Assembly (NCBI GenBank): GCA_049296855.1
Contig: JBAQTF010000010.1
Location: forward strand, 108,610 to 172,609
DNA length: 64,000 nt
Reading direction: 5' to 3'
Origin: Minisyncoccia bacterium
GTDB lineage: Bacteria > Patescibacteriota > Minisyncoccia > Phycocordibacterales > DATDWN01
Below, one piece after another: positions 43,187 to 59,033 of this stretch (position 1 is its first letter; every line of letters starts with the position of its first letter). The translations under genes and the position numbers were made by a program. The notes beneath the pieces are model-generated. The model worked only from the letters and a program-made list of their open reading frames with translations. It ran no database searches and was not told the origin of the DNA.

Positions 43187-43214
43187 AAAACAAATCGCAT
43201 GATATAATAGCAAA

Positions 43215-44030
43215 ATGCCTAGCCGTAAAATTCTAACTGTTCTTATCATATGTATCGCTACTATTACATCAACTTGGATTTTACTTCGCATACCAAAAAA
43301 TACCAGCTCTGGAATTCAGAACTCTGAATCCGTCACTGTAAGTTCATACAGAAACATAACGGCGACAACTAGTGATGATTGGAAAAAAGTTATAATTGAC
43401 TTTAATGAAAAAAATCAAAATGTCACGACAAATACAAACCTGCCAGAAGTAATAACCTTAACCAGTGCCTTAGCAAAAGACATATTCGCAAGGGCGTTAA
43501 TGATGGCAAAAGGAGGAGGAGCCCCTAATGAAGAAAATATGAACAAAATGATGCAGTCAATATTATCTTCACCAGAATACTTAAAGAATGGAGGAGCTTT
43601 GTATATAGTTTCAAATTTACATGTAACTGATAAAAACGACAAATTTACAGAAGCTAAATACAAAGAAACTTTTGAGAAAAGCCTTTATGAAAGAATGAAA
43701 CAGGCTGAAGGCAAGGATGACCCTATGGCAATATTAGTGAGAGCATCCGAAGAAAACAACGAGAAAATAATTATGGAAATGGATCCTATAATTAAAGCAA
43801 ACAAAGACTTTATTAACGACTTATTAAACATGGAGGTACCCATTAGTGTTGTAAAAATACACTTAGATATCCTCAATGCAGCAAGTGACATACTTGCAAA
43901 CATTGAAGATCTTCGTTTAACTTTTGAGGATCCTGTCAGAAGTCTTCGAGGCTTAAGCCAATACACTCAACATTTAGATAACTTTACGACATCACTTCAA
44001 AACATGATCTCATACTTTGAGAAAAATTAG
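43215..44030 (+). CDS. hypothetical secreted protein (signal peptide)
   Basis: It has an N-terminal signal anchor and no known motif. Confidence 0.45.
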   Translation: MPSRKILTVLIICIATITSTWILLRIPKNTSSGIQNSESVTVSSYRNITATTSDDWKKVIIDFNEKNQNVTTNTNLPEVITLTSALAKDIFARALMMAKGGGAPNEENMNKMMQSILSSPEYLKNGGALYIVSNLHVTDKNDKFTEAKYKETFEKSLYERMKQAEGKDDPMAILVRASEENNEKIIMEMDPIIKANKDFINDLLNMEVPISVVKIHLDILNAASDILANIEDLRLTFEDPVRSLRGLSQYTQHLDNFTTSLQNMISYFEKN

Positions 44031-44039
44031 GGCTAATAA

Positions 44040-46184
44040 TTGAGCTTTAAGGAAAAGACTTTTCAACAGAAAGGCTGGTTTTTAAAAGACACATTGGTAT
44101 ATAATGTAGGTGTTATATGTCTTTTTAAAAATACCTTGAAAAGTAATAATTTTATTAAGAAAAACTTGGTTATTGTTGCTTTGTTGTTGTCTTTTCTGGT
44201 TCCCCAAAAGAGTCATGCTTATGCTGGAGTTGTAGATGTTGTTATTGACCCAGCCCATATAACAAAATCTGTTATAAATGGAATTCAACTTGCAAAATCA
44301 TTCGCAATGTTTGCTGCGAACACTCTTGCATGGAGATATGCTAAATCACTTGTTCAAGATATAACTGGTTCAACAGTAAATTGGATAAACTCTGGATTCG
44401 AAGGTAATCCAGCATACATAACAGACCCTAGTCAGTTTTTCCTCGATATAGCGGATGATACTGCTGGAGAATTTCTTTCTGGAACAAGGCTAAACGTACT
44501 CTGTACGCCTTTTAGAGGACCAGTTAGATTGGCCCTACTTAATAGCTATCTAAGAAATACTAATAATCAACAATATGCCTGTACATTGTCAAAAATACTA
44601 AACAATTATGACGCCTTTACAAATGATTTCAGTGTCGGAGGATGGGATGGTTGGTTTGAAGTAACTCAAAGTACTGGTGGTAATCCATACTATGTAGCAC
44701 TTTCTACACAAAACGAAATGCTAGATAAAGTTGCTTCTGAACAAACTATCTACAAAGAACAGTCAACACAAAGTGGAGGATTTTTGTCAATGGAGAAATG
44801 TAGACCTGAAGACACAGTAACAGCTGGAAATCAAGCAGCTATGTCAGCTAAATTTGGAAGATCATTAAATGTTGGGGATTGTACTGGTAAAAAAGAAGTG
44901 GTTACACCGGGAAGCGTCATAGCAGACCAACTAAATACTCAACTACCTACGGGAGTACGTTCACTAGAATTAGCTGACTCACTAGGAGAAATAATTAACG
45001 CAGCTATATCAATGCTAACCACAAAAATCCTGGGTCCTGGTCAAGGTCTTCGAGGACTGACTGGTCAATTACCTCCAGGGGCTAGTAGCTCGGGATTTCC
45101 AGTTCTAGACGTAACTGGTGATAACCCAGTGACTCATTATCTAGGTACATTTTATGAAGATGCCAGAGCGACAGCTATTGACATGGAAGATGGTGATATA
45201 ACCAGCAGAATAGTAACAAGTGGAGGTGTTAATTATAATACTATCGGAACTTATAAAATCACGTATAGTGTGACCAATTCTAGAGGCAATACTGCGACCG
45301 CAGTTAGAACAGTCATAGTAAGACCGTTTCAAGAGCCAGGTGCTGGAACTGGAGAGACTTGTGTAGATGGTATCAAAAATCAAGACGAGACAGGAATTGA
45401 TACGGGAGGGATTTGTGGAAGTGGGACTATAGCAACTTGTTCCGATGGTATTAGAAATCAAGATGAAACGGGAATTGATGTTGGTGGGATTTGTGGAATT
45501 GGAAGTTCTGCACCAGTAATAACCTCGATTAGTCCTACAGGAGTTTTACTTGGAGTGGCAACAACAATGACTATTACTGGTAATAACCTAACATCTAGTG
45601 TGCAGTTCACTGATAGTACAGGAAAGGTATTTAATGTAACAGGGACAGTCATAAACGGTGGTACGCAAACTAGAGTATCAGTACCAACAAACCTAGCTCC
45701 TAACGTTACAACTCTAAAAGTATTAAATGGTGGATTTGCATCAAACGCAGTATCATTCATCGTAACTGTATCACCGACTTGTGTCGCCGGATCAAATGAA
45801 ATGTCTTGTGTTGCACCTAACCAAGCTAATCTAGTTTCAGAAGTGATTAAATATTTAATTAGCAAAGGACAAACATTTAACATAAATAACAGTTGTGACT
45901 TCTATGAGATAACTAAACGTGTAGCCTGGGCTCTAAGAAGTACAGACGGCGGATTACTGACAAGTCCTGGTTCTGGATGTAACGCAAATTCTGTTGTCAT
46001 GATAAGTTACATAGATAACTCTCGCGTTAAAATACTATTTTGGGATAACAACGGCTTATTGTTACCAGGTTCTGTCAGATGGGATCCTTTCCCACAAAGT
46101 AACGATGGAAGTATTGTTTATATCCCACCAGTCGATCCAGGTGATCCAGCTAATGCTTGTTACTTAGCAAAAACTCCTTGCTAA
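44040..46184 (+). CDS. large secreted surface protein with an Ig-like domain, two tandem Cys-containing repeats and an IPT/TIG-like domain
   Basis: The motif GTYKITYSVTNSRGNTATAVRTVIV is Ig-like. The repeat CxDGIxNQDETGIDxGGICGxG occurs twice (nt 45361-45516). ITSISPTGV...TITGNNL is IPT-like. The start is uncertain. Confidence 0.55.
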   Translation: MSFKEKTFQQKGWFLKDTLVYNVGVICLFKNTLKSNNFIKKNLVIVALLLSFLVPQKSHAYAGVVDVVIDPAHITKSVINGIQLAKSFAMFAANTLAWRYAKSLVQDITGSTVNWINSGFEGNPAYITDPSQFFLDIADDTAGEFLSGTRLNVLCTPFRGPVRLALLNSYLRNTNNQQYACTLSKILNNYDAFTNDFSVGGWDGWFEVTQSTGGNPYYVALSTQNEMLDKVASEQTIYKEQSTQSGGFLSMEKCRPEDTVTAGNQAAMSAKFGRSLNVGDCTGKKEVVTPGSVIADQLNTQLPTGVRSLELADSLGEIINAAISMLTTKILGPGQGLRGLTGQLPPGASSSGFPVLDVTGDNPVTHYLGTFYEDARATAIDMEDGDITSRIVTSGGVNYNTIGTYKITYSVTNSRGNTATAVRTVIVRPFQEPGAGTGETCVDGIKNQDETGIDTGGICGSGTIATCSDGIRNQDETGIDVGGICGIGSSAPVITSISPTGVLLGVATTMTITGNNLTSSVQFTDSTGKVFNVTGTVINGGTQTRVSVPTNLAPNVTTLKVLNGGFASNAVSFIVTVSPTCVAGSNEMSCVAPNQANLVSEVIKYLISKGQTFNINNSCDFYEITKRVAWALRSTDGGLLTSPGSGCNANSVVMISYIDNSRVKILFWDNNGLLLPGSVRWDPFPQSNDGSIVYIPPVDPGDPANACYLAKTPC

Positions 46185-46246
46185 GGATGAAAAATCTGCC
46201 GTACATTCTAACTAATAGTAGAAAATGACATTGAATAAATCCGATT

Positions 46247-48796
46247 ATGTTTAGAAAAATAACCCAACTAAAATCAGTAGGACATAGCGGTAAAAAATAT
46301 TTCACTCGTGGAGCAATGTCGTTTTTCACTATAGGACTAATACTGGTTATATTTGTGGGAATTTTTAGTCCTGTTGTGAAAATACAAGCACAAGGGATAC
46401 CAGGACAATCATATACAGACATGGGAACTTGTACAGGTAATAATGGAAATTTTAGTGAACGACTGATGCGTGGTGATTGTCAGCAACTGATAGATCAGGG
46501 TATTATTCTTGGAGGAGTGTTCACCCCAGATCCACCTCCACCAGAACCTCCTGCCGCACCAGAACCTCCTAAAACAGACTGTGGTTTTTCTCCATCTACT
46601 TGGACAGATTGTTTCGAAAATGTCATCCAAACCATATTCGTAGCTATACTCAAAATGATGAGTTGGATTACTGGAATCGCTGGTTTACTACTAAACTTTG
46701 TACTGAAGTACACCATTCTAGATATGAAGGTAAATATAGATGGATTAACGGGTATAAACACTGCTTGGAAAATCCTGCGTGATTTGATGAACATTGCATT
46801 TATATTCCTTCTTATATATGAGGGTATAAAAATGATAATAGGACAGAGTAGCACAAATGACGTTAGAAAATTCATCACTGGACTTGTTCTGGCTTCACTT
46901 TTGATAAACTTTAGTTTATTTTTTACCAAAGTGATGATAGATGCATCAAACATTGTTACTATAGGATTCTACCAAGCAATCCTTGTTCCACCTCCCGGTT
47001 CAACTGTTCCTATCGCAGAATATGGGCTCTCTGATCCAATCGCTAGAGCACTGGGACTAGCCGGTTTGTTTGGTGCAACTGGCGATCCAGGTTTTGCTGG
47101 TGGAAACGACATGGGAGGTATACTCATTATGGCTCTTGGATCGGGAATGGTGCTTTTGGTTTCTGCTTTTGTTTTCTTTGCTGTATCTATACTGTTTATT
47201 ATCCGATATATTGCTCTCATAATTCTGATGATGCTATCTCCGATTGCTTATATGGGTATAGCTTTACCTTTTGTAAGTGGTTATGCCAAAGACTGGTGGA
47301 AAGCATTTAATAGTCAGATTATTTTTGGACCAGTCTATATGATTATGACTTGGGTCATACTGACACTTATGTCTAGTCCTGGTTTTGGTATGCAAGGAAG
47401 TTTTGTAAAGTTGTTTAACGATCCAACAAAACCAAGCTTTAGTAACATAGGTCTTCTATTTAATTTTGCTTTAATTATTGGACTTCTCATAGCTTCTCTT
47501 CTTATCGCCAAAAAGGTTTCTTCCAATGGTTCAAATCATATCGCCAATGCAACAAGCAGACTCTCTGCATTTGCTGGTGGAGTGGTAATAGGTGGCGGTG
47601 CAAGACTAATGAGAAACACGGTTGGTAGAGCTGGAGCTGATAGCGCAAACAATGAGGATTTAAAAGAAAGAGCAACGAGAGAAAGATTTGGATTGATAGA
47701 TAAAACCAAGGGAGCTTGGGCCAAAAGCTCACTCGCTGCAGCTAATAAAGCCGCAACAAGTAGTTTTGACGCTCGTGCAACAAGTAGTTTTGAAGGAGTA
47801 GCTAAAGCATCTGGTATGGGTTTTGGAAAAGTTGATGTCAAAAAAGAAAATTTCAAAGCGATTAAAGAAGCTCAAGGAAAAGCTGCTGAAGAAAAAGCAA
47901 AACAATATAAACCAACTGATCTTGCTGTCGAACAAGCTAAAGCAAAACTTAATGAAAAAACTGACGAAGGACAGAAGTTTAGAGATGAAGAGGCGGAGAG
48001 AAAGAGGGCTCATGATATTTATATAAAATCGGATGACTACAAAAATTCTAATGAGTATGAGAATATTCAAAAATTAGAGGATGATAATAGAAGAGATAAA
48101 ATCAAAGTTAGAGATGATAAAGTAGATATCAAATATTCGCAACAAAAACTTGATGACCTAAGAATTAAAATGGACGAATATGCGGAAAATACACCAGAAA
48201 AAACTCAGATTAGAGATAAGATAGATATTCTACAAAAAGAAACTGCCAGAAAACAGGAGTTGCTAAGAGGACTAGAGAATCTTGTTACAAGTCGAGGGGA
48301 TACAATAGATGAGTATGAATTCAACATAGTTAACTATATGTCTGAAGAAAAGAAAGCACTCATTGCAACCGCAGGAGGAACAAAGAACGAGAAAGGCCCA
48401 GGTGGAGTAGATGTGATAAAAGACCAGGCCGGAAATACTGTTGATAGAAAGGTTAAATCTGCATATGAACAAAGAACAGAAGCTACAGCAAGTAGAATTG
48501 AAAACGCTGGACCTATGTGGAGATATGCAGCAAATACTGTTGGAATTGCAGCTAATGTTGTTGGAGTTCCTCTTGTTTCCATTCCAAAAACAAAAGCTGA
48601 CAGAGATGAATTGGCTAGAAGAGTTAGAAAGGCATCGGCTCCGAAAAACGCAGCCCAGCTCCGAAAAGAAGCTGAGAAACTAGAAAAAAAAGAAAGGGTA
48701 GCGAGGGGTGAAAAAGATGAAGATGAGGAAGAAACACCTGAACCAACACCAGCTCCAACACCAACACCAGCTCCAGAAAATCCACCAACAACTTAA
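46247..48796 (+). CDS. VirB6/TrbL-like polytopic membrane protein with a long coiled-coil C-terminal domain
   Basis: It has an N-terminal signal/anchor, a Cys-containing extracytoplasmic loop and about 7 TM helices. The C-terminus is a 400-aa charged coiled-coil that ends in a PT-rich tail. Confidence 0.45.
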   Translation: MFRKITQLKSVGHSGKKYFTRGAMSFFTIGLILVIFVGIFSPVVKIQAQGIPGQSYTDMGTCTGNNGNFSERLMRGDCQQLIDQGIILGGVFTPDPPPPEPPAAPEPPKTDCGFSPSTWTDCFENVIQTIFVAILKMMSWITGIAGLLLNFVLKYTILDMKVNIDGLTGINTAWKILRDLMNIAFIFLLIYEGIKMIIGQSSTNDVRKFITGLVLASLLINFSLFFTKVMIDASNIVTIGFYQAILVPPPGSTVPIAEYGLSDPIARALGLAGLFGATGDPGFAGGNDMGGILIMALGSGMVLLVSAFVFFAVSILFIIRYIALIILMMLSPIAYMGIALPFVSGYAKDWWKAFNSQIIFGPVYMIMTWVILTLMSSPGFGMQGSFVKLFNDPTKPSFSNIGLLFNFALIIGLLIASLLIAKKVSSNGSNHIANATSRLSAFAGGVVIGGGARLMRNTVGRAGADSANNEDLKERATRERFGLIDKTKGAWAKSSLAAANKAATSSFDARATSSFEGVAKASGMGFGKVDVKKENFKAIKEAQGKAAEEKAKQYKPTDLAVEQAKAKLNEKTDEGQKFRDEEAERKRAHDIYIKSDDYKNSNEYENIQKLEDDNRRDKIKVRDDKVDIKYSQQKLDDLRIKMDEYAENTPEKTQIRDKIDILQKETARKQELLRGLENLVTSRGDTIDEYEFNIVNYMSEEKKALIATAGGTKNEKGPGGVDVIKDQAGNTVDRKVKSAYEQRTEATASRIENAGPMWRYAANTVGIAANVVGVPLVSIPKTKADRDELARRVRKASAPKNAAQLRKEAEKLEKKERVARGEKDEDEEETPEPTPAPTPTPAPENPPTT

Positions 48797-48801
48797 AATA
48801 T

Positions 48802-49557
48802 ATGGATAATCAACAAGAAATACCGGAATACATAAAAAATCTACCAAAACCAGTGCAAGATGTAGTTCTTGATGGCGTTTGGGAGAGTAGAACGACTGAA
48901 ATTGCCAAAAAATATGCTCTTAATCCAATTCAGACTGACGGTTTAATAAATTCTGTACTTTTTATTTTAATTGGTCTGGATAAACCTGATGATTTTTTGG
49001 AGAGAATAATTAACGATCTTGGAATATCAAGTCTTCTTGCTGAGCAAATATTGGAAGATGTAAACAATCGAGTATTTGAGTACGCTATAAAAGAAATTGG
49101 TGGTAAAAGTAAATCAGAATTAGCACAAAACATTCCAAGTTCTGTTCCAATTCAATCTAAGACTGTCGAGGGTAGGGTAGAGATAAGACCTGAAAATTTG
49201 CCTAGTAAAAACATCACGACCACGCAAGAAAAACCACCAGCACCAAAATACGTACCAACCTACAAACCAACTGCCACAGTTTTAAACGACCCATCTCTAC
49301 ACCATGAACTACCCAAAGTAGCTCCTGAACCATCACGTATAATATACAAACCCAATGCTTCATCTGAACCCATTCAACAACCAATTCCTGTTCCACGTTT
49401 CGTTCCAAAACCAGTGACAGATATGTCTGCACAGACAGGAACTCTAACTGTACAAACTAGTAAACCACTAGAAACTGTCGCACTAGCTAAGACCGAACAA
49501 AAAGAAAAACCTCCAGAAAGATATACTATCGACCCCTATAGAGAACCAATAGAATAA
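48802..49557 (+). CDS. hypothetical protein with a Pro-rich C-terminal half
   Basis: Only an ORF. It is co-directional with the rest of the cluster. Confidence 0.4.
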   Translation: MDNQQEIPEYIKNLPKPVQDVVLDGVWESRTTEIAKKYALNPIQTDGLINSVLFILIGLDKPDDFLERIINDLGISSLLAEQILEDVNNRVFEYAIKEIGGKSKSELAQNIPSSVPIQSKTVEGRVEIRPENLPSKNITTTQEKPPAPKYVPTYKPTATVLNDPSLHHELPKVAPEPSRIIYKPNASSEPIQQPIPVPRFVPKPVTDMSAQTGTLTVQTSKPLETVALAKTEQKEKPPERYTIDPYREPIE

Positions 49558-49558
49558 A

Positions 49559-49993
49559 ATGAAATACCAAGTACCACAATTTATAGATGTGGAGGACAAA
49601 ATAGTCGGCCCTTTTACTGTAAAACAATTCATTTATGTCGTCGGTGGGGCGGGAATGGCTTTTATTATATACAGATTTCTACCAATATACATATCTGTAA
49701 TACTCTTAGCTGTGACAATCCCTCTTTCTCTAGCACTAGCTTTTTATAAAGTAAATAACAAACCTTTTATTGACTTTCTTGAGTCAGCTTTTCTCTACTA
49801 CACAAAAAACAACTTATACATCTGGAAAAAGGAGGAGAAAAAGATTGCGGAGTCGGAAATCAAAGCGACCAGAATGACACAAGTTCATGTTCCAAGACTT
49901 TCTGACAGTAAATTAAAAGAGCTTTCGTGGTCGCTCGATATTAATGAAAATCTAAATCCACTTACAGGTGATGACGGAAAGAATACCAAATAA
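49559..49993 (+). CDS. PrgI/VirB3-like small membrane protein
   Basis: The protein is 144 aa and has a hydrophobic hairpin (VVGGAGMAFIIY...ILLAVTIPLSLALAF). Its start codon overlaps the stop of the preceding gene, and a VirB4-like gene lies downstream. Confidence 0.4.
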   Translation: MKYQVPQFIDVEDKIVGPFTVKQFIYVVGGAGMAFIIYRFLPIYISVILLAVTIPLSLALAFYKVNNKPFIDFLESAFLYYTKNNLYIWKKEEKKIAESEIKATRMTQVHVPRLSDSKLKELSWSLDINENLNPLTGDDGKNTK

Positions 49994-50070
49994 TTTCTAA
50001 TTTCTAGTTCATTAAAACCGTAGTTTTTAGAAATTGAAAATTAGAAATTACTTTATGTTATAATAAAATC

Positions 50071-50709
50071 ATGACTGCATCTTCAAAAGCAACACAGGAG
50101 TTCGTTCCAATAAAAGAAGTGCGCGACGGCATTATCGTCTTAAAAAGTGGCTCAATGCGAGCTATCGTTCTAGCCTCTTCATTAAACTTCAGTCTAAAGT
50201 CAGAAGACGAGAGAAACGCTATCATATTGCAATTTCAAGATTTTCTTAACTCATTAGACTTTGCAGTACAAATTTCTATAGAGTCCAGACGACTGGATAT
50301 AAGACCGTACTTAGCCCTTTTAGAGGATCGTTACAAAGAACAGATAAATGAACTGATGAAAATCCAGACCAGAGAATACATAGAGTTCGTCAAAAAATTT
50401 ACCGAAACGACAAATATCATGACGAAAAGTTTCTTTGTCGTTGTTTCATATGATCCAGCTATAATAAGCATGAAAAGTGGTATGATGAGCGGTTTATTTC
50501 AGAAAAAGTCTAATGCACAAGAAACCGCTGATAAAAAAGCTGGGTTCGAAGAAAACAAAACTCAACTAGAACAGCGTGTTTCAGTAGTAGAACAGGGCCT
50601 ATCTCGATGTGGAATACGTGTGATAAGACTAGGAACAGAAGAGGTTGTAGAATTGTTCTATAAAATATTTAATCCTGGAGATACGGAGAAACCAATAAAA
50701 GTTAGTTAA
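50071..50709 (+). CDS. hypothetical cytoplasmic protein, possibly an accessory or N-terminal-domain partner of the VirB4-like ATPase
   Basis: A 212-aa ORF lying 9 nt upstream of the ATPase gene. Confidence 0.4.
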   Translation: MTASSKATQEFVPIKEVRDGIIVLKSGSMRAIVLASSLNFSLKSEDERNAIILQFQDFLNSLDFAVQISIESRRLDIRPYLALLEDRYKEQINELMKIQTREYIEFVKKFTETTNIMTKSFFVVVSYDPAIISMKSGMMSGLFQKKSNAQETADKKAGFEENKTQLEQRVSVVEQGLSRCGIRVIRLGTEEVVELFYKIFNPGDTEKPIKVS

Positions 50710-50718
50710 AACAAATTT

Positions 50719-52521
50719 ATGGGAATGTTTGATTTTTTAAAAACAAAAAAAGAAGAATCTCAAATTTCTACTATTCTGCCTCAGACTATTGCTGATTCTT
50801 CTACACTAGAACTGAAAGATATTATTGCTCCAAGTGCCCTAAAAGTCTCCCCAAAGGAGGTCAATCTTGGTGAGAAAGTCCTACGAAGTTTCTTTGTTAT
50901 CTCTTACCCAAGATACCTGTCTGAAAACTGGTTTGCACCAATTATCAATTTAGACAAAGTTTTTGACATTTCCATTTTTATATCACCAATAGAAACGGCT
51001 CAGGTTTTGCGTACCTTTCAAAAAAAAGTAGCTGAAGTTCAGAGCCAGATAAACGCCAGGGAAGCCAAAGGTCTTGTGCGAAACCCAATGCTAGACACAG
51101 CTTATCAGGACCTAGAGAACCTGCGTGATCGACTACAACAAGCTCAGGAGCGTTTATTTGACGTCGGACTATATGTCACTATATACGGAGAATCGGATGG
51201 GGAATTGGACAAAATTGAGTCTGAAATAAAATCCATCCTTGAAGCAAAACTGGTTTATGTAAAACCAGCACTGTTCCAACAGGAACAGGGTTTCAAAACA
51301 ACAATTCCTCTTGGTACTGATGAATTAAAAGTTTACAGTAAACTTAATTCTTCGCCACTTTCATCTCTGTTTCCTTTTGTCTCTTTTGACCTAACATCAG
51401 ACAGGGGAATTCTCTATGGAATAAACAGACACAACTCATCTCTCGTTCTTTTTGATAGATTCTCTCTGGAAAACTACAACTCAATTATATTTGCAAAATC
51501 TGGTTCAGGAAAATCATACTCAACAAAAATTGAGATTCTTCGTACTCTTATGTTTGATACAGATGTTATTGTTATTGACCCAGAAAAAGAATATGAGTAT
51601 TTATCAGAAGCCGTCGGAGGAAGATACTTCAACATTTCACTTAACTCTGAACACCACATCAATCCTTTCGAACTCTCTATTCCTGGAGAAGGAGAATCAT
51701 TCGCTAATGTTTTACGCTCTAACATTATAAATCTGGTTGGGCTTTTCCGTTTGATGATGGGAGGCTTAACCCCAGAGGAAGATGCTATCGTTGACAGGGC
51801 AATAACTGAAACATACGCTTTAAAAGACATCACCGTTGATACAAACTTTGAAAATGTAGAGCCACCACTTATGTCTGACTTTGAACTAGTGCTTTCTGGT
51901 ATGGAGGGAGGAGATTCACTGGCCCAGAGACTGACAAAATACACTAGAGGTACTTGGGCAGGATTTATAAACAGGCCTAGTAATATAGACATAAACAAGA
52001 AATTTGTGGTTTTTTCACTGCGAGATATGGAGGACGAACTCAAGCCTATAGCTATGTACATCATTATGCACTTTATGTGGAATATGATTAGGAAAAAACT
52101 AAAAAAGCGCCTCTTAGTCATTGATGAAGCGTGGTGGATGATGAAGTCGGAAGACACAGCATCTTTCCTACTCTCTCTTGCAAAACGCGGAAGAAAATAT
52201 TATCTAGGACTTGCAACTATCACTCAGGACGTGGATGATTTTATGAAATCCCCATATGGGGTGCCGATTATTACGAACTCTTCTATACAGATTTTACTAA
52301 AACAATCTCCGAGCTCAATAGATAAACTACAACAAACATTTAACCTGACAGATGAGGAAAAATATCTTCTTCTTGAATCAGATGTGGGAGAAGGAATATT
52401 CTTTGCTGGACTAAAGCATGTGGCAATAAAAATTATTGCTTCTTATACAGAGGACCAGATTATAACTTCTGATCCATCACAGATTTTGGCTATAAAAAAA
52501 GCTAAAGCGGATTTGATGTAA
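50719..52521 (+). CDS. VirB4/TraE/PrgJ-like conjugation-type ATPase
   Basis: The N-terminal region (IAPSALKVSPKEV...ISYPRYLSENWFAPIINLD) is typical of Gram-positive VirB4 homologues. It has a Walker A motif (AKSGSGKSY) and a Walker B motif (LLVIDEAWWMM). Confidence 0.75.
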   Translation: MGMFDFLKTKKEESQISTILPQTIADSSTLELKDIIAPSALKVSPKEVNLGEKVLRSFFVISYPRYLSENWFAPIINLDKVFDISIFISPIETAQVLRTFQKKVAEVQSQINAREAKGLVRNPMLDTAYQDLENLRDRLQQAQERLFDVGLYVTIYGESDGELDKIESEIKSILEAKLVYVKPALFQQEQGFKTTIPLGTDELKVYSKLNSSPLSSLFPFVSFDLTSDRGILYGINRHNSSLVLFDRFSLENYNSIIFAKSGSGKSYSTKIEILRTLMFDTDVIVIDPEKEYEYLSEAVGGRYFNISLNSEHHINPFELSIPGEGESFANVLRSNIINLVGLFRLMMGGLTPEEDAIVDRAITETYALKDITVDTNFENVEPPLMSDFELVLSGMEGGDSLAQRLTKYTRGTWAGFINRPSNIDINKKFVVFSLRDMEDELKPIAMYIIMHFMWNMIRKKLKKRLLVIDEAWWMMKSEDTASFLLSLAKRGRKYYLGLATITQDVDDFMKSPYGVPIITNSSIQILLKQSPSSIDKLQQTFNLTDEEKYLLLESDVGEGIFFAGLKHVAIKIIASYTEDQIITSDPSQILAIKKAKADLM

Positions 52522-52541
52522 ATCGTGTTAAAATAAAAGTT

Positions 52542-52970
52542 ATGGGAGACGACGCTAAAATAAAAGACACCACACTATTCCTCATGATTGCCGTGGCACT
52601 GTCTTTTGATTTTTTACAAGCACTTATTGGTTGGATTCCAATAGTAGGCAATATTATGTCTGACCTTATGAGTGTTTTTATCTGTTTAACTTTTGTTTTT
52701 TGGTTTATGATGGTTGGGATAAAGATTAGCCAAAAAAGAATTATGGCTTTGGTTGGTGGAGGAGCGGTTGAAATAATTCCTTTTATAAATATACTACCTG
52801 CTTGGACTGCCGTGGTCGTTTATATTGTGGGCACAACAAGAATCAAAGAACTTACTGCCGAACATCCAAAACTAGCCAGAGGTGCAATGGCTGCTGGGGG
52901 TAAAATAAAAAGTATGGCTAAAGGCAAAACGGAAGAGACCGAATCAGAGACTGCGGAAGTAGTTGCTTAA
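52542..52970 (+). CDS. hypothetical 3-4 TM membrane protein
   Basis: Hydrophobic segments are present. Confidence 0.45.
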   Translation: MGDDAKIKDTTLFLMIAVALSFDFLQALIGWIPIVGNIMSDLMSVFICLTFVFWFMMVGIKISQKRIMALVGGGAVEIIPFINILPAWTAVVVYIVGTTRIKELTAEHPKLARGAMAAGGKIKSMAKGKTEETESETAEVVA

Positions 52971-54045
52971 TGTGCATAAATATATAGTGAAAAGTAGGTG
53001 CTATGGTACAATTAGGCTAATGAGAATTTCTATTTTTTCATTGTTAATTCTATGCTTACTCTTCTTCTTTAGTTTTGACGTAAACGTACGAGCCGAAGAC
53101 ACGGTAATGGCTAAAGACAAGATAAATGTCGAGTTAATCCCAGCAATCCCTAAAGCACATGAAATTGTCACTGCTTTTCTAACAAGCTTTATGACGAACA
53201 TAAATGCAGCTGATATCACTTGGAAAATAGATGGTAAAACTCAAAAAACTGGGACTGGTGAGACAAAATTTCAATTTACTTTGAGTAGTATAAATACAAC
53301 CACCAATCTGGAAGTTACAGTCATCACAGCAGAAGGTGAAACTGTAGTAAGTGAGTATAGTATAAAACCTGCTGATATTGACTTGATTTGGCAAGCAAAA
53401 AGTTTTGTCCCACCTTTTTATAAGGGTAAGGCTATTTTTAGTCATCAAAACGAGATTACTTTCGTAGCCGTACCACACATTGCTTCTGGTAGTGGAGAAA
53501 TCCCCGCAAAAAATCTAATCTATAAATGGTCAAAAGACGGCAGAGTGTTAGAAAGTGATTCTGGGTACGGAAAAAACACATTGACTATGACTGGACCGAT
53601 CATATCTCGACCATTCACTATATATGTAGAAGTAACAACACTAAATACACCGGACAAAGGTTTTTCTTTTACAAATATAACTCCAGCCTTACCGTCCATC
53701 GTTTTTTACAAAAAAGATCCACTTTATGGAATTGAATTTCAAAAAGCTTTAAGTGGTATTATAGATATGGGCAATCTAAGTGAGATGGTTATTATTGCAG
53801 AACCTTTTTTCTACGGGACTACAAATGCTGGGGCATCTGAGTTAACATATAAATGGACTGTTAATGGAACAGTTGTAAACAGTGATCCGCGACAAACAGT
53901 GCAAGTCTTTAGAGTAAAAGAAGGGACTTATGGAACTTCAAACATTTCTCTATCGATTGAAAATAGCCTTAAAATATTTCAGTATGTTTCGAGTAATTTT
54001 AAATTAAAGTTTGGAAAATCAACAACAGAAAATGTAGCTTTTTGA
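52963..54045 (+). CDS. hypothetical secreted beta-rich protein
   Basis: It has a signal peptide (from about 53020) and no known motif. Confidence 0.45.
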   Translation: MLNVHKYIVKSRCYGTIRLMRISIFSLLILCLLFFFSFDVNVRAEDTVMAKDKINVELIPAIPKAHEIVTAFLTSFMTNINAADITWKIDGKTQKTGTGETKFQFTLSSINTTTNLEVTVITAEGETVVSEYSIKPADIDLIWQAKSFVPPFYKGKAIFSHQNEITFVAVPHIASGSGEIPAKNLIYKWSKDGRVLESDSGYGKNTLTMTGPIISRPFTIYVEVTTLNTPDKGFSFTNITPALPSIVFYKKDPLYGIEFQKALSGIIDMGNLSEMVIIAEPFFYGTTNAGASELTYKWTVNGTVVNSDPRQTVQVFRVKEGTYGTSNISLSIENSLKIFQYVSSNFKLKFGKSTTENVAF

Positions 54046-54062
54046 TAATATACGACTAAACC

Positions 54063-54905
54063 ATGCAAACTCTATTTACAACAACAGCCCGTCTAACTCT
54101 AGGTCTCCTCATATGTCTTTGTCTGTTTACTACTGTATATGCCACGGATTATGCTGTTTTAGTTAACCTTCCAGGGGTTGGAGCAACAACAAATTTAACC
54201 TCATATGTTCCTGCAATTTTTAAACTCTCCATGGGTATAGCGGCAGCTATGGCTTTTGCTGTACTTACATTTGGTGGAATCGTATATGCAACGTCAGATG
54301 CTATTTCAGGAAAAGATGACGGCAAAAGATATATGGAAAATGCGATTTGGGGACTACTTCTAGTTATTGGGGCTTATGCTATTTTGTGGACAATAAATCC
54401 ACAAATTCTTTCTTTTGAACTAACACTTAAAGCACCAGAAATCAAAGCAGGAGCTTCAAATGTCTCCGACCAAGGAACACCATTAGATGCAGATCAACTA
54501 GGTGATGATGCTCGTATAAGATCCTACTTATCAACAAACGGTGTTTCTGTTAACAGTCCCGCTTGTACAGCAGGAAATACTATTGGATGTACTAATGTAA
54601 ATGCACTCCCTCCTAATGCACAGGCAGCACTTATATACATAAAGGCGAATTGTTCCTGTTCTGTAGTAATAACGGGTGGAACAGAAGGTGGACATAAATC
54701 ACACGGACCCAACCTAGCAGTAGTTGATTTGAGAGCTGATGTTAATTTAAATAAATATATTAATGGAGATGCTAACACACCACCAAACAACACCACTATT
54801 CAAAAGAACGTTAATGGTGCTAATGTACAATTTACATTTGAAACTACTGGTGGTGGTACGGGAGGTACATCATCAGGGCCACATTGGCACACAGTAATAA
54901 ACTAA
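54063..54905 (+). CDS. TrbC/VirB2-like pilin with a C-terminal extension of about 150 aa
   Basis: It has a long signal peptide, two hydrophobic helices separated by a short charged loop, and a Gly/Thr-rich tail. Confidence 0.45.
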   Translation: MQTLFTTTARLTLGLLICLCLFTTVYATDYAVLVNLPGVGATTNLTSYVPAIFKLSMGIAAAMAFAVLTFGGIVYATSDAISGKDDGKRYMENAIWGLLLVIGAYAILWTINPQILSFELTLKAPEIKAGASNVSDQGTPLDADQLGDDARIRSYLSTNGVSVNSPACTAGNTIGCTNVNALPPNAQAALIYIKANCSCSVVITGGTEGGHKSHGPNLAVVDLRADVNLNKYINGDANTPPNNTTIQKNVNGANVQFTFETTGGGTGGTSSGPHWHTVIN

Positions 54906-54906
54906 T

Positions 54907-56130
54907 ATGTCGAAAAAAACTATTATTATAATATCTACAGTACTCGGTCTTCTTTTGATATTTCTAGTTGTTTACTTTTTATTCTTTCAAAGTGGTCCAA
55001 GCACTCCTGGCGGAATAATTTCTGGATTCAAAAGTTTCTTTCCTTTTGGTGGTGATAACCTGCCTCCACCGACCCCCACATCAGAACCAACACCCACACC
55101 TACTCCAACCCATACTCCAAACACAGACTTTACCCAAAAGCTACGCAAACTCTCTACGAACCCCGTGGCTGGGGCTGGGATAGTGGACACCAAAGCCGGA
55201 AGTGTTGTTCGTTATATAGAAAAAGCAACTGGACATATATTTGAAATTGAACTTTTTTCTCCAAAACAAGGTCGTATTTCGAATACCACTATACCAGTAG
55301 TGTACAACGCTATATGGGGCAACAAGAACAACTCCCTAGTTTCGCAATACTTAAAAGATGACAATCGAACAATAGATACTTATTCATTAGCAATAAAAGA
55401 ACTCTCCACAACAACTGAAAACATTGTTTCCGGAGTAGCCCTACCTCTAAATGTAAATCAGGTAAGTGCTTTAGGTGACAGCATTTTCTACCTAGAGCAA
55501 CTAAAAGACTCTTCCGCAGGGTATATTTCAAAATTTGATGGAAGTTCAAAAAAACAAATATGGAATTCGCCACTCTCGGAATTATTATCTCAGTATGTAA
55601 ATACGAAAATAATAGCCCTAACCACTAAACCCCTATCAGATGTAGCGGGATATCTATATTTTGTAGACGCAACAACCGGACAAGTGAAAAAAATCTTGGG
55701 GGATATACTTGGCTTAGCCACTCTGGTAAACGGCTCTGCTTCGCAAGTACTTTATTTAAATCAAGAAAATTCTATTAGCTTAAACCTGTTCAATTCCAAA
55801 GATAACTCTAGAACAAACATCTCCCCGACAACATTTCCAGAAAAATGTGTCTGGAGCAAAAAAGACGAGTCGATTGTTTACTGTGCTGTACCGAAAGGAA
55901 GTCTTAATGGCGAGAGTCTGACAAATTGGTATAAAGGATTTATTTTATACAGTGACGATATTTGGAAATATGATCTAAAAAATAACACTTCGAATATTAT
56001 AGAAGATTTAAATAGTGACTCTGGAGAAAATATTGATGTTATAAAACCAATACTATCCGAAAATGAACAATATCTGGTGTTTATGAATAAGTTAGATAAT
56101 TTTTTATGGAGCTTGGACTTAACTAAGTAG
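54907..56130 (+). CDS. membrane-anchored protein with a PT-rich linker and a beta-rich ectodomain
   Basis: It has an N-terminal TM helix and the linker PTPTSEPTPTPTPTHTP. Confidence 0.45.
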   Translation: MSKKTIIIISTVLGLLLIFLVVYFLFFQSGPSTPGGIISGFKSFFPFGGDNLPPPTPTSEPTPTPTPTHTPNTDFTQKLRKLSTNPVAGAGIVDTKAGSVVRYIEKATGHIFEIELFSPKQGRISNTTIPVVYNAIWGNKNNSLVSQYLKDDNRTIDTYSLAIKELSTTTENIVSGVALPLNVNQVSALGDSIFYLEQLKDSSAGYISKFDGSSKKQIWNSPLSELLSQYVNTKIIALTTKPLSDVAGYLYFVDATTGQVKKILGDILGLATLVNGSASQVLYLNQENSISLNLFNSKDNSRTNISPTTFPEKCVWSKKDESIVYCAVPKGSLNGESLTNWYKGFILYSDDIWKYDLKNNTSNIIEDLNSDSGENIDVIKPILSENEQYLVFMNKLDNFLWSLDLTK

Positions 56131-56133
56131 TTA

Positions 56134-56853
56134 TTACATCACTATCGCAGATTTATGATACTTCTTTCGTATATATATCTCCTGACCAATGGCGAAAACA
56201 TTGCTTGTGATTAAGTATAGAGCAACGGCAGATGAGATGGTGTAAGCAATGAAAGCCATAAGAATAGGGAAAAAGTATTTCATCTGCATTGACATAGCTT
56301 TTGCTATATCACTTTGGGTGTCTCCAGGGGAACTCTGTGGTGTAGAGAAGCTTATCTGAAAATATGATGTTACACCTGCAATAACAGCTAAAAATAAACT
56401 TTTTTCGGCGATATCAATCAACCCCAAAAACATCATATTTGGCGGAACTGGAGAGCTGATAAATGAATATAATAAAGTACTGTCTATATTAGGAAGTCCT
56501 GATTTCAAAAAAACTTGGTATAAACCAATGAGGAGTGGGAGTTGAATAATGAGTATAATTAAACCAGAAAATGGGTTTATATTGTTTTCTTTGTAGTACT
56601 CCATCGTCTTTTTCGTCTGCTCCTCCTTACTATCTTTATGTTTTTCTTTTATTTGTTGTAGATCTTTCTCTATACTTTTCATTTGAAGTTGAGCTTTTGA
56701 CGCTTTAATAGACAGAGGTAACATTATTATTTTCACCACTATAGTGAAAATAATAATGATGATTCCAGCATCAAAAAAAGGGAGTAGCCCAACAAGAGCT
56801 ATAAGGCCATTGTATAGAGGTTTAGATATAATTGTGTGAAAAATTGAAGACAT
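56134..56853 (-). CDS. yidC: membrane protein insertase YidC/Oxa1 (short form)
   Basis: It has the 5-TM YidC core, and rnpA lies immediately upstream. Confidence 0.85.
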   Translation of the reverse strand: MSSIFHTIISKPLYNGLIALVGLLPFFDAGIIIIIFTIVVKIIMLPLSIKASKAQLQMKSIEKDLQQIKEKHKDSKEEQTKKTMEYYKENNINPFSGLIILIIQLPLLIGLYQVFLKSGLPNIDSTLLYSFISSPVPPNMMFLGLIDIAEKSLFLAVIAGVTSYFQISFSTPQSSPGDTQSDIAKAMSMQMKYFFPILMAFIAYTISSAVALYLITSNVFAIGQEIYIRKKYHKSAIVM

Positions 56854-56857
56854 TTGA

Positions 56858-57208
56858 CTATTCTAACACACCAGACTCTGAAAGTAAGCTTTTGACTTCT
56901 TTTTCAAGATCCAAAAATTTTGGTGGTTTATTGCTTTTTTTGAAAGAGAAAAAGCAGATAAACCCAGGTTTTATTATACTCAAATATTGACTAACTATAG
57001 AGTAACCTCTCCTGCGATATTTATTCCTATCAACCGCCTTTTTGGAAACCTTTTTGGAAACCGAGAAAGAAAACTTGCTGTCTTTTGAGATTGGAGAGGT
57101 ACTATCTTTTATAACATACATTAAAAGGTGAGGGGAGTTATATCTTTTTCCTTTAGAAAGGATATTTCCAAATTCCTTCCTTGATATTCTCCTTTTTCTT
57201 GGAAGCAT
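56858..57208 (-). CDS. rnpA: ribonuclease P protein component
   Basis: It is a small basic protein lying between rpmH and yidC. Confidence 0.8.
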   Translation of the reverse strand: MLPRKRRISRKEFGNILSKGKRYNSPHLLMYVIKDSTSPISKDSKFSFSVSKKVSKKAVDRNKYRRRGYSIVSQYLSIIKPGFICFFSFKKSNKPPKFLDLEKEVKSLLSESGVLE

Positions 57209-57214
57209 ATTATC

Positions 57215-57352
57215 TAGACTGTGCTCAGTTTAGCCCGGCCTTTTCTTCGGCGTCTAAGTAGAGTGTTTCTTCCAGTCTTTGATGAGCTACGAACAAGAAA
57301 GCCGTGAGATTTAGCTCTTTTTCTTTTTTTTGGTTGATATGTTTGAGACATG
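57215..57352 (-). CDS. rpmH: 50S ribosomal protein L34
   Basis: The translation is [45 protein letters not shown]. It is 45 aa, which is why it is missing from the ORF track. Confidence 0.85.
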
Positions 57353-57456
57353 ATGAATAGAGATTTGTACCATAATTACTGTTAACAACTTATACACATA
57401 TTATTAACATATCCACGACTTTTTAACAAGTACTTTATTTTTTAGTTTTCTATATA
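57353..57456. promoter_or_regulatory. oriC-associated region upstream of dnaA with DnaA-box-like 9-mers
   Basis: TTATACACA is at 57391-57399 and ATATCCACG is at 57410-57418. The region lies between the divergent rpmH and dnaA genes. Confidence 0.5.
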
Positions 57457-58806
57457 ATGGTACCCATGATAGAAAATAAGAAACTCTGGGATAGTGTTTT
57501 AGTTGAGATGGAATTAAATCTTTCTAAACCCAACTTCAACACATGGTTTAAAGACACTCACATAATCAAACATGAAGATGGCACTATCTATCTTGGAGTT
57601 CCAAACACTTTTGTTCAAGACTGGCTCGGAAGTAAGTTCCATAACTCAATACTAAAAGCACTACGTGGTATTTCTCAAAACGTTCAATCTCTACAATATG
57701 TAATTTCAAAAGATGAGGTGAAGGAAAAACAGACACAGGACAAACCAATTCAACAAACAAAAGAGCTACCAATCCAAGATACTTATATAAACAAGGAAGA
57801 TAACCTCAATCCTCGCTATACTTTTGAGAATTTTGTTGTGGGACCGTTCAATGAATTCGCTAATGCAGCCTCTCAAGCAATCATTAAAAAACCTGGGATC
57901 GTATATAATCCTCTTTTTATCTATGGTGGAACCGGTCACGGAAAAACACACCTGATCCAAGCTATTGGAAATCATTTAAAAAATTCGAGTAATAAAAAAG
58001 TCTTTTATACTACTTCAGAAAAGTTTTTTCAGGAGTATGTAAATGCACTTCAACTAAACAAGCCAAACTTTTTTAAAGAAAAATACAGAAAATACGATGT
58101 TCTTATTATGGATGACATCCAGTTTTTCTCTGGGAAAATGCAAGCACAGGAACAACTATTTCATTTATTCAACCATTTATATGAAAACAATAAACAAATC
58201 ATATTTTCGTCAGATAAACACCCCGGTCTCATCCAAGATCTAGAGGAAAGAATGAAATCGAGATTTAGTGCTGGTATGGTTGTGGACATACCCACACCAG
58301 ATAACGAGTCCAGAGTTGCTATTATCAAGTCAAAATCAAGTAATACAGCTTATCCATTCTCAAAAGAAGTTGTGGAGTATCTAGCTTATTCCATTGTTGG
58401 AAATATAAGAGAACTTGAGGGTATTATCAACTCTATTACATGTCAGTCCGAACTTAAAGGACGGGAATTGTCACTATCTGAGGTCAAAAATTTTGTAAAA
58501 AACAACACAAAACCCAAAAAATTAGCCTCTACTAAAGAAGTAGTAAAAACTGTGGCTGAATTCTATAACATAGAAGAGCAACTTATTTATGATAAAACTC
58601 GTAAAAAAGAAGTTATTAAACCCAGACAGATAATAATGTATATCCTACGTGAAGACTTTAACATCTCGTATCCTGCTATAGGAGAGAAGCTTGGTGGGAG
58701 AGACCACACAACAGTCATGCATTCGTGTGAAAAGATAAAAAATGATATGAAGGGTGATGATATGCTTATACAAGAAATAAATCAACTTCGATCTATTTTT
58801 GTGTAA
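57457..58806 (+). CDS. dnaA: chromosomal replication initiator DnaA
   Basis: It has an AAA+ Walker A motif (GGTGHGKTHL) and a C-terminal DNA-binding domain. Confidence 0.95.
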   Translation: MVPMIENKKLWDSVLVEMELNLSKPNFNTWFKDTHIIKHEDGTIYLGVPNTFVQDWLGSKFHNSILKALRGISQNVQSLQYVISKDEVKEKQTQDKPIQQTKELPIQDTYINKEDNLNPRYTFENFVVGPFNEFANAASQAIIKKPGIVYNPLFIYGGTGHGKTHLIQAIGNHLKNSSNKKVFYTTSEKFFQEYVNALQLNKPNFFKEKYRKYDVLIMDDIQFFSGKMQAQEQLFHLFNHLYENNKQIIFSSDKHPGLIQDLEERMKSRFSAGMVVDIPTPDNESRVAIIKSKSSNTAYPFSKEVVEYLAYSIVGNIRELEGIINSITCQSELKGRELSLSEVKNFVKNNTKPKKLASTKEVVKTVAEFYNIEEQLIYDKTRKKEVIKPRQIIMYILREDFNISYPAIGEKLGGRDHTTVMHSCEKIKNDMKGDDMLIQEINQLRSIFV

Positions 58807-59033
58807 AACATTGTTTATATTATGTTGATAAGATATTTATAATATATTAATAAATAAAGGATAGAGTGTGGACGACTTGTTTATTTATTTAAATAGTATT
58901 AGGTTATACACATAGATAACTAATTTATACATGTAGGTATTTTAAAAAAATGGCTTATAATATAGATATATTATAAATATCCACAATTACACACCTATAG
59001 TAATAATTAGATCTTAAAAAAACAAAAAATATT
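58807..59033. promoter_or_regulatory. oriC / AT-rich DNA unwinding region with DnaA boxes between dnaA and dnaN
   Basis: TTATACACA is at 58904-58912, aTATCCACA is at 58977-58985 and TTACACACC is at 58987-58995. The region is extremely AT-rich. Confidence 0.55.

Follow-up and report, generated by a model that had tools for sequence, protein, structure and literature searches.

Adjacent trsD-like and virB4 genes of a Minisyncoccia bacterium probably specify a single two-polypeptide VirB4 ATPase

The stretch of DNA analysed here in its entirety (64,000 nucleotides of contig JBAQTF010000010.1 of a Minisyncoccia bacterium, hereafter referred to as the window) harbors a T4SS-like cluster of 11 co-oriented genes (43215..56130, forward strand). 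Its products include a surface protein of the Ig-like type, a polytopic membrane protein of 849 aa, a PrgI-family protein, those of the trsD-like and virB4 genes, and several pilin-like proteins. Upstream, the cluster is bordered by ksgA and a UbiA-family gene, and downstream by yidC, rnpA, dnaA and dnaN. Neither a relaxase nor a VirD4-like domain was detected among the cluster genes or the remaining large ORFs of the 64-kb window; within this span, the hallmark of a conjugative T4SS, i.e., a relaxase and VirD4, the type IV coupling protein, accompanying the mating-pair formation genes, is not seen.

The trsD-like gene (50071..50709, forward strand) starts with ATG, encodes a protein of 212 aa, and is located immediately downstream of the gene for a PrgI-family (VirB3-like) membrane protein (49559..49993, forward strand; Pfam PrgI E 2.9e-10, 41 bits vs. 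a cutoff of 27). It is followed by virB4 (50719..52521, forward strand), also with an ATG start, encoding a 600-aa protein devoid of the N-terminal ca. 200 residues of VirB4. The junction of the two genes (50707..50718, forward strand) is formed by the TAA stop codon and 9 nt (AACAAATTT), the latter (50710-50718) representing the whole spacer before the virB4 ATG; it lacks a Shine-Dalgarno sequence and is in frame with this ATG. Hence, the reading frame continues unchanged from one ORF to the other across a single TAA (TAA-AAC-AAA-TTT, ...PIKVS*NKFMGMF...), a circumstance missed by the first-pass annotation, made from the sequence alone. Its other statements on the layout are borne out by the ORF list and the translation: the 212-aa ORF ends 9 nt upstream of the 600-aa ATPase, and the strings quoted from it are found at aa 17-33 (VRDGIIVLKSGSMRAIV) and aa 41-47 (SLKSEDE). 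In the deposited annotation, the two products are designated “hypothetical protein” and “DUF87 domain-containing protein”, respectively.

The identity of the larger product is straightforward. It passes the NCBIfam profile NF045971 (“VirB4-like conjugal transfer ATPase, CD1110 family”) with 369.2 bits vs. a cutoff of 325 (E 4e-110), and Pfam assigns P-loop_TraG, AAA_10 and DUF87 to it (PF19044, E 4.7e-30; PF12846, E 6.7e-13). Both Walker boxes reported earlier are in place: Walker A (FAKSGSGKSYS, aa 258-268; 51490..51522, forward strand) and Walker B (LLVIDEAWWMM, aa 465-475; 52111..52143, forward strand), comprising the general VirB4 motifs GxxGxGKS/T (KSGSGKSY, aa 260-267) and hhhhDE (LLVIDEAWW, aa 465-473). 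At the same time, the protein covers only positions 179-733 of the 752 in the CD1110 profile, the first ca. 178 being missing, and positions 265-724 of TIGR00929. The profile of the small-protein (TrsD) family finds no internal match in it (probability 0.3%). Of the N-terminal region typical of Gram-positive VirB4, with which the first-pass annotation had credited this ATPase, only the second half is present; the complete TrwK-like N-terminal domain that single-chain VirB4 combines with the ATPase domain is not. The 600-aa product thus represents the rest of the VirB4 N-terminal domain (ca. aa 1-245) and the RecA-like ATPase domain (ca. aa 247-600).

The region missing from the ATPase is the one to which the 212-aa ORF is related. 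Five independent VirB4/TrsD profiles of NCBIfam match it with E values from 1.6e-12 to 7e-6, always with their N-terminal parts: the CD1110 family (positions 2-120 of 752), TIGR00929 VirB4_CagE (4-174 of 792), Mbov_0397 VirB4 (100-234 of 894), TrbE (53-218 of 852) and, over nearly the full profile, TrsD/TraD (NF041427; 14-199 of 201, 26 bits, E 7e-6). The score of 26 bits stays far below the curated NF041427 cutoff of 200 bits, so that the ORF can be regarded as a TrsD/TraD homologue but not as a member of that family by the NCBI threshold. Aligned by hhalign with TrsD of S. aureus, the profile of the 212-aa protein matches at 13-208 against 33-217 (E 6e-5, probability 65%). It also displays the hallmarks of TrsD in the CONJScan/MPF_FATA sense (as in PMC12102498), e.g., a length of ca. 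200 aa, homology to the VirB4 N-terminus and location between a VirB3-like gene and virB4; the name in this sense was assigned from homology and the synteny of PrgI and the two halves rather than from a CONJScan TrsD HMM score. According to precomputed annotation, PF26593 (PF26593.2) is carried by P0001, a protein 100% identical to the 212-aa ORF, by all of its best 120 homologues and also, in its N-terminal part, by fused VirB4. No literature on PF26593 was found. The scan against the local Pfam-A copy, which is older than PF26593, yielded sub-threshold noise only (DUF2015; TraC_F_IV, E 0.09). Matches to T4 portal protein, obtained by phmmer against PDB sequences, were rejected as chance-level (E ca. 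0.7). Some of the stand-alone TrsD homologues bear long disordered C-terminal tails.

The structural comparison points in the same direction. The AlphaFold model of the 212-aa protein (pLDDT 82.8), searched against the PDB with Foldseek, retrieved 14 chains of R388 TrwK/VirB4 at probability 1.00, the next match having an E value of 0.26. These matches came without residue ranges, and the small protein is assigned to the TrwK N-terminus on the basis of the sequence-profile coordinates and the colinearity with fused forms described below. Together with the N-terminal profile matches, this fold match, confined to TrwK/VirB4, settles the homology check proposed for the ORF: its product is a TrsD-family protein, and its homology extends over approximately the first half of the N-terminal domain of VirB4.

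Fused orthologues, sought on the suggestion of the first-pass annotation, do exist. Single-chain VirB4 of ca. 790 aa occurs in Ca. Colwellbacteria. P0317 (797 aa) and at least 117 further proteins of this size are colinear with both ORFs of the window: among the best 120 homologues of P0317, 118 are 775-807 aa long and possess PF26593 along with the ATPase domains. In P0317, residues 1-214 match the first ORF at 43% identity and residues 229-791 the second at 54%, and only the concatenated 212-aa and 600-aa ORFs are colinear with single-chain VirB4. The model of the fused protein matches full-length TrwK over ca. 850 aligned columns (E 2e-25). Its pLDDT drops to 58-59 at residues 211-230, i.e., at the split site, with 83-86 in the flanks; the split falls within a linker of low model confidence and little conservation. 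With a sequence profile of the fused family, the only structure reached was the crystal structure of the VirB4 C-terminal domain, 4AG5 (E 6.9e-56, from position 445, corresponding to ca. aa 247 of the 600-aa ORF), and not TrwK. In a bootstrapped NJ tree of the N-parts, rooted on a saturated outgroup (16-18% identity), the fused sequences fall into a clade of 15 leaves together with 3 stand-alone ones, nested among stand-alone forms; the clade uniting the fused sequences with that of the window excludes at least three stand-alone sequences in 93% of the replicates and at least five in 78%. Two proteins of the fused clade, P0411 and P0507, had the appearance of recent re-splits; in P0411, this is due to an assembly gap of 100 N inside the gene.

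In related genomes, the two genes stay together. The halves are adjacent in all 78 informative species-level related loci, answering in the affirmative the adjacency check proposed earlier, and this pairing is far beyond chance. The gaps between them range from -4 to +523 nt, the frame offsets 0/1/2 occur 17, 32 and 29 times, the stop codon of the N-half is TAA in 48 loci, TAG in 16 and TGA in 14, and in six loci another gene is inserted between the halves. The best 120 homologues of each half are ca. 212 and ca. 603 aa long, respectively. The split is found in relatives at 62-84% identity (77-92% for the C half), where a conserved start, MG[IM]FDFLK, follows the junction, and the identical 212-aa protein is recorded on three contigs. 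The split is, therefore, an ancient and stably inherited gene fission, shared widely among the ultra-small Patescibacteria. Still, TrsD homologues of Gracilibacteria were reported to be non-adjacent to virB4 (PMC12102498), so the tight linkage is not universal.

Taken together, these observations suggest, with a probability of about 0.88, that the two ORFs jointly encode one VirB4 ATPase composed of two polypeptides. The earlier proposal of a split or accessory VirB4 domain, as opposed to an unrelated gene, holds in its first part and fails in its second: a split is preferred because the ATPase lacks the very region supplied by the small ORF, as seen from the complementary profile coordinates and the absence of a TrsD match inside it. 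The accessory reading, i.e., that TrsD is a paralogue, a further copy of the N-domain with a regulatory or adaptor role beside a complete VirB4, could draw on the non-adjacent Gracilibacteria homologues and on the disordered tails of some TrsD proteins, but is unlikely given that the 600-aa protein begins only at ca. position 179 of the CD1110 profile and contains no internal match to the TrsD family, that 212 and 600 aa add up to a fused VirB4 (ca. 790 aa) residue for residue, and that the fused model matches full-length TrwK. An unrelated neighbour gene resembling VirB4 N-termini by chance would be in line with the lack of significant matches in the local Pfam copy and with the chance-level portal-protein matches in the PDB sequences; five NCBIfam profiles matching with their N-termini, the TrwK/VirB4 fold match, the colinear fused homologues and PF26593 common to the stand-alone and fused forms leave next to no room for it.

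Two further explanations stem from the shared reading frame. According to one of them, a single-chain VirB4 of ca. 815 aa was broken recently by one in-frame TAA, be it a nonsense mutation, a pseudogene or a sequencing error. The common frame, with only the TAA and three codons between the ORFs, and the existence of single-chain versions speak for such an interruption. It is nevertheless hardly credible in view of the split in 78 of 78 informative relatives with varied stop codons, gaps and frames and sometimes an inserted gene, the identical protein on three contigs, the high conservation of both halves and of the start motif after the junction, and the tracing of the apparent recent split of P0411 to an assembly gap. 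The other explanation, programmed readthrough of the TAA at some frequency, yielding both separate TrsD and full-length fused VirB4, is compatible with the two ORFs being in frame, as they also are in 17 of the 78 relatives, and with the fused forms functional elsewhere. However, the remaining 61 would be unable to make the fusion in this way; TAA is the least leaky stop codon; and some of the in-frame pairs are 72-459 nt apart, with further stops or another gene in between. Since the offsets (17/32/29) are near random, the frame is not maintained by selection, and readthrough is regarded as highly improbable. The shared frame with a single TAA in the Minisyncoccia bacterium genome is a coincidence.

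For the two-polypeptide ATPase, the following scheme can be envisaged. The two chains would re-associate non-covalently and rebuild the N-terminal domain, as suggested by their complementarity, the fused homologues and the R388 structure. In the latter, VirB3 wraps around residues 15-400 of VirB4, its N-terminal domain, which alone makes up the dimer interface (PMC9259494); hence, by analogy, TrsD probably serves to dock the ATPase onto the membrane protein of the PrgI/VirB3 type whose gene lies just upstream. Regarding expression, an extended -10-like box, TGTTATAAT (50056..50064, forward strand), ends 6 nt before the trsD ATG and might act as the promoter (of the form TGnTATAAT) of a leaderless bicistronic trsD-virB4 transcript. 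In the window, 12 of 27 such boxes are situated 6-8 nt ahead of a long ORF; the next box, at 52526, precedes the gene after virB4. A strict TGnTAnAAT box is present ahead of trsD in only 18 of 80 relatives, and a generic scan for sigma-70 promoters and terminators gave fewer promoter-like sites than in shuffled sequence. The ATPase may be translated by termination–reinitiation coupling 9 nt past the trsD stop, in a genome without Shine-Dalgarno sequences, which would provide approximately equal amounts of both chains. The leaderless-promoter and coupling proposals were deduced entirely from motif positions.

A broader evolutionary scenario is more doubtful than the two-polypeptide reading itself. 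It would imply that a single ancient fission was inherited by both Patescibacteria and the plasmids of the pGO1/pSK41 type, that the origin of the Patescibacteria T4SS is tied specifically to the MPF_FATA subclass bearing TrsD, that the VirB4 of Colwellbacteria is a secondary re-fusion, and that the detached N-subdomain is functionally exploited; as a whole, it is considered possible but rather unlikely. The functional use is hinted at by the long disordered tails of many stand-alone TrsD proteins. If true, the detached subdomain could, e.g., allow TrsD and ATPase to be present in ratios that deviate from 1:1, or the ATPase to dock onto PrgI/VirB3 in a staged and regulated manner.

The practical consequences are more immediate. 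The Patescibacteria T4SS is reportedly essential for epibiotic growth and is among the few machines conserved in these reduced genomes; therefore, each of its components deserves correct annotation. Once TrsD is recognised as the N-terminal subdomain that VirB4 lacks, a structural hypothesis becomes available for a protein described without an assigned function. The same view means that, in these lineages, phylogenies and HMM searches based on VirB4 capture only a part of the protein, and that both chains need to be co-expressed in structural or biochemical work on these ATPases. Beyond these consequences for annotation, the finding is confirmatory and opens no new question.

The arrangement itself has been known since 2025. 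Quiñonero-Coronel et al. (2025, Microb Genom; PMC12102498) documented TrsD homologues beside virB4 and near dnaA as the commonest component of the Patescibacteria T4SS, adjoining virB4 in 1,664 of 2,272 cases and essential in S. epibionticum. These systems are chromosomal, origin-proximal and relaxase-less, and are thought to serve the epibiotic lifestyle and not conjugation (PMC12102498). The locus of the window is the same thing: a trsD-like gene of ca. 210 aa directly 5′ of virB4, in the vicinity of PrgI/VirB3 and of pilins resembling VirB2, and without a relaxase; the Paceibacteria locus of that study is likewise chromosomal and situated beside ksgA, rnpA, dnaA and dnaN, as is the cluster at 43215..56130. 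There, TrsD was treated as a “remote homology” with no function, and the truncation of VirB4, the split point equal to that of pGO1 and the fused forms of Colwellbacteria were not part of the description. What is added here is the complementarity of the halves, the fused clade and the coincidence of the split points.

The closest parallel outside this group is provided by the staphylococcal plasmids of the pGO1/pSK41 type (an MPF_FATA subclass; e.g., CP049370.1), where a VirB3-like gene is followed by those of TrsD (TraD; 227 aa) and, after a gap of 20 nt, the VirB4-like TrsE (TraE; 670 aa). The order TrsC–TrsD–TrsE of the S. aureus plasmid mirrors that of PrgI and the two halves in the window. 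The 600-aa ORF aligns with TrsE from residue 6 and residue 3, respectively (FLKTKKEE vs. FLKKKKQE), to 572/615 (E 4e-32), and this match of the C halves right from their first residues onward shows that the split point is common to both pairs. Their similarity is very low, ca. 16-17% in the N half and 23% in the C half, and, in contrast to the chromosomal system of the window, where neither a relaxase nor a coupling protein occurs in 64 kb, the pGO1/pSK41-type plasmid is conjugative and encodes a MOBQ relaxase. The main text of Guglielmini 2014 contains no explicit discussion of TrsD, and the pELF “TraD” is a VirD4-type protein and irrelevant here.

Single-chain VirB4 proteins (TrwK of R388, the CD1110 family of Clostridioides CTn2 and VirB4 of Ca. 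Colwellbacteria such as P0317) exhibit the fold and domain order of the concatenated ORFs of the window and share with them the Walker A/B ATPase core, VirB3 being the partner of the N-terminal domain. The difference is that the first ca. 200 residues form a separate polypeptide in the window, and the identity to TrwK amounts to only ca. 15-17%. Finally, VirB3-VirB4 fusions are known from some conjugative systems, with none reported in Patescibacteria (PMC12102498). They indicate evolutionary plasticity of the borders separating VirB3, the N-terminal domain of VirB4 and its ATPase domain, although the polarity is opposite: fusion in those systems and fission in the window.

The 212-aa ORF (50071–50709, + strand) and the 600-aa ATPase ORF (50719–52521, + strand) of the ORF listing, below called trsD and virB4, are separated by only 9 nt between the TAA of the former and the ATG of the latter. 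The motifs quoted in the first-pass annotation were all found in these ORFs: Walker A (FAKSGSGKSYS, aa 258–268) and Walker B (LLVIDEAWWMM, aa 465–475) in the 600-aa protein, VRDGIIVLKSGSMRAIV and SLKSEDE in the small one. It had gone unremarked there that both ORFs share one reading frame, with TAA-AAC-AAA-TTT as the sole spacer (...PIKVS*NKFMGMF...). Since a single TAA interrupts a common frame, three possibilities were checked, i.e., a recent nonsense mutation, a sequencing error, and programmed readthrough.

The split is real and old. The best 120 homologs of the small ORF are all 210–219 aa long and the best 120 of the ATPase all 600–625 aa; the named sources of both sets are nearly all Patescibacteria (Minisyncoccia, Paceibacterota, Zambryskibacteria), with one pair labelled Nitrospira. 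When 1.84 billion cluster representatives were screened exhaustively, 2,318 relatives of the small ORF were obtained (E up to 0.001); among the best 150, 149 stand alone (146–443 aa) and one has 797 aa. Of 80 species-level genome loci retrieved (62–84% identity), two were cut off by a contig edge; in all 78 informative ones the ATPase gene directly follows the small ORF, so the genes are neighbors in related genomes, as expected if the two are related in the way the first-pass annotation proposed. The junction itself is diverse: the gap ranges from −4 nt (ATGA overlap) to +523 nt, mostly −4 to +5 nt, the frame offset of the downstream start is 0, 1, or 2 in 17, 32, and 29 loci, and the small ORF ends in TAA (48), TAG (16), or TGA (14). 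Moreover, a whole extra small gene separates trsD and virB4 in six loci. Given this variety of gaps, frames, stops, and inserted genes, the in-frame TAA of the window is a coincidence expected about one time in three. The diversity of the junction across the 78 relatives effectively excludes a fresh mutation as the source of this TAA, and their frame offsets make a readthrough signal highly unlikely. Judging by the sequences, the two genes would be translated independently.

Five of the inserted genes (L001:6640–7086, L003:6640–7060, L024:6628–7091, L064:6613–7071, and L065:4315–4756, L-numbers denoting loci of relatives) encode a 23S_rRNA_IVP/four-helix-bundle protein (PF05635, E 1e-34 to 1e-38), and the sixth (L044:6619–7141) a PDDEXK_3 protein (PF13366). 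Short direct or inverted repeats flank each of the six, as in a small mobile cassette, and eight further loci carry AT-rich, repeat-like spacers of 72–122 nt at the junction. Many stand-alone TrsD homologs reach 300–440 aa owing to long, Pro/Ala/Gln/Thr-rich and apparently disordered C-terminal tails (e.g., P0335, P0287, P0342); the protein of the window has no such tail.

The 600-aa protein harbors P-loop_TraG, AAA_10, and DUF87 domains and scores 369 bits against NCBIfam CD1110 (VirB4-like conjugal transfer ATPases), above the curated cutoff of 325, covering only positions 179–733 of 752. The local Pfam copy gave no significant match for the 212-aa protein. Five VirB4-type profiles of NCBIfam align with it at their N-termini: Mbov_0397 VirB4 (positions 100–234 of 894, E 1.6e-12), TIGR00929 VirB4_CagE (4–174 of 792), CD1110 (2–120 of 752), TrbE (53–218 of 852), and the TrsD/TraD family model, which is covered nearly entirely (14–199 of 201). 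This bears out the suspected homology to VirB4 N-termini. These coordinates show that the two ORFs represent complementary, non-overlapping portions of VirB4. Were the small protein an extra paralogous copy, its counterpart should be present in the ATPase; as a control, the profile of the 212-aa family found no internal match in the 600-aa protein (hhalign probability 0.3%), so this explanation was rejected and the small protein is the missing piece. Hence, from the initial proposal of a split or accessory domain, the split-off part is supported and the accessory role is not.

The predicted fold agrees with this assignment. With 67 aligned sequences as input, AlphaFold2 gave a model of the 212-aa protein (mean pLDDT 82.8) for which Foldseek retrieved 14 PDB chains, each of them TrwK, the VirB4 of R388, from cryo-EM structures of its T4SS (probability 1.00, E 1e-4 to 5e-3; next match E 0.26). 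The model of P0317, a single-chain VirB4 of 797 aa from Ca. Colwellbacteria (pLDDT 71), aligned with full-length TrwK over ~850 columns (E 2e-25). Its pLDDT falls to 58–59 at residues 211–230 between flanks of 83–86, coinciding with the division point of the window genes; the dip is compatible with a flexible linker as the site of the split. The alignment of the fused-family profile with 4AG5, the crystal structure of the VirB4 C-terminal domain, begins at profile position 445, i.e., about residue 247 of the 600-aa protein, which places the split inside the N-terminal domain and not at its border with the ATPase. The N-terminal domain is thus divided between the two ORFs: about its first half is supplied by the 212-aa ORF, and its second half, together with the ATPase, by the 600-aa ORF.

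Fused orthologs do exist elsewhere, as the first-pass annotation had suggested checking. P0317 is colinear with the two ORFs (residues 1–214 are 43% identical to the small one, residues 229–791 are 54% identical to the ATPase), and 118 of its best 120 homologs are 775–807 aa long with PF26593 and ATPase domains. The other two are apparently short; of these, P0411 (a 600-aa ‘VirB4’ from a Colwellbacteria-like assembly) was rejected as genuinely short: a run of 100 N (L081:1546–1646) lies inside a fused ~800-aa gene and led gene callers to truncate the protein. In a bootstrapped NJ tree of the N parts, rooted on a saturated outgroup, the fused sequences and three stand-alone ones form a 15-leaf clade nested among stand-alone forms; re-fusion or repeated fission is possible from this topology.

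The pair belongs to a cluster of 11 co-oriented genes (about 43.2–56.1 kb). Upstream of the cluster lie uvrD, ksgA, and a UbiA-family gene; immediately downstream, at 56134–60134, yidC(−), rnpA(−), dnaA(+), and dnaN(+) occur in an order that probably marks the replication origin region, and GC content drops to 0.28 at 58–60 kb. No relaxase or coupling protein was found among the other large ORFs of the window, which are housekeeping genes. Within the cluster, one candidate adhesin of the cell surface is the 714-aa product of 44040–46184 (+, TTG start), which combines a bacterial surface Ig-like domain (PF16403, E 7e-20) with weak TIG-like repeats and a Cys-rich repeat that occurs twice (GIxNQDETGIDxGGICG). 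The polytopic protein encoded next (849 aa; 46247–48796, +) matches no Pfam or NCBIfam model; it has numerous predicted membrane helices, its C-terminal region is rich in Lys/Glu and its tail in Pro/Thr, and it occupies the expected position of a VirB6-like channel subunit. A 142-aa membrane protein directly after virB4 (52542–52970, +; no domain match) and a 280-aa protein (54063–54905, +) with a sub-threshold N-terminal T4SS_pilin match (E 5e-4) followed by ~170 extra residues may represent the VirB2-like pilins described in Patescibacteria.

In R388, the VirB4 N-terminal domain spans residues 15–400 (PMC9259494), and a PrgI-family (VirB3-like) gene directly precedes trsD in the window. TrsD would re-associate with the truncated VirB4, completing a domain that may provide much of the surface by which the ATPase is coupled to PrgI/VirB3 at the membrane. 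A Shine–Dalgarno motif is absent from all 22 gene starts examined in the window, so the genome seems to do without such sequences, and 12 of the 27 TGnTAnAAT extended −10-like boxes end 6–8 nt upstream of a long-ORF start codon; together these tentatively suggest that leaderless mRNAs are widespread in the genome. Such boxes precede trsD (TGTTATAAT, 50056–50064) and the gene following virB4 (52526–52534), and others lie at 43200–43208, 38716–38724, 21188–21196, 33080–33088, and 56860–56868 (−). From these positions, trsD and virB4 might form their own bicistronic unit, with the ATPase possibly translated by termination–reinitiation coupling over the 9-nt gap. Among 80 relatives, only 18 have the strict box ahead of trsD, although relaxed −10-like boxes are frequent at this position.

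Exactly this system of Patescibacteria was described by Quiñonero-Coronel et al. (2025), who found 2,272 TrsD homologs, 1,664 of them associated with virB4, a TrsD homolog essential in Ca. S. epibionticum, clusters mostly without relaxases, and, in Paceibacteria, their location near dnaA, dnaN, rnpA, and ksgA (PMC12102498). The finding is, hence, already known at the family level; added here are the explicit complementarity of both chains, i.e., a true fission, its confirmation at the level of the fold, the abundant fused clade in Colwellbacteria, and a fission point identical, within a few residues, to that of the pSK41-type TrsD/TrsE pair. In CP049370.1, a pSK41-type plasmid of S. aureus, TrsC (VirB3-like) is followed by TraD/TrsD (227 aa), a 20-nt gap, and TrsE (670 aa). 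The alignment of the window ATPase with TrsE starts right at both N-termini (residue 6 vs. 3, FLKTKKEE vs. FLKKKKQE) and runs to residues 572/615 (E 4e-32), and positions 13–208 of the 212-aa family profile align with TrsD 33–217 (E 6e-5), from which the coincidence of the break follows. This shared position possibly reflects inheritance of a single fission or, alternatively, a site at which breaks are strongly favored.
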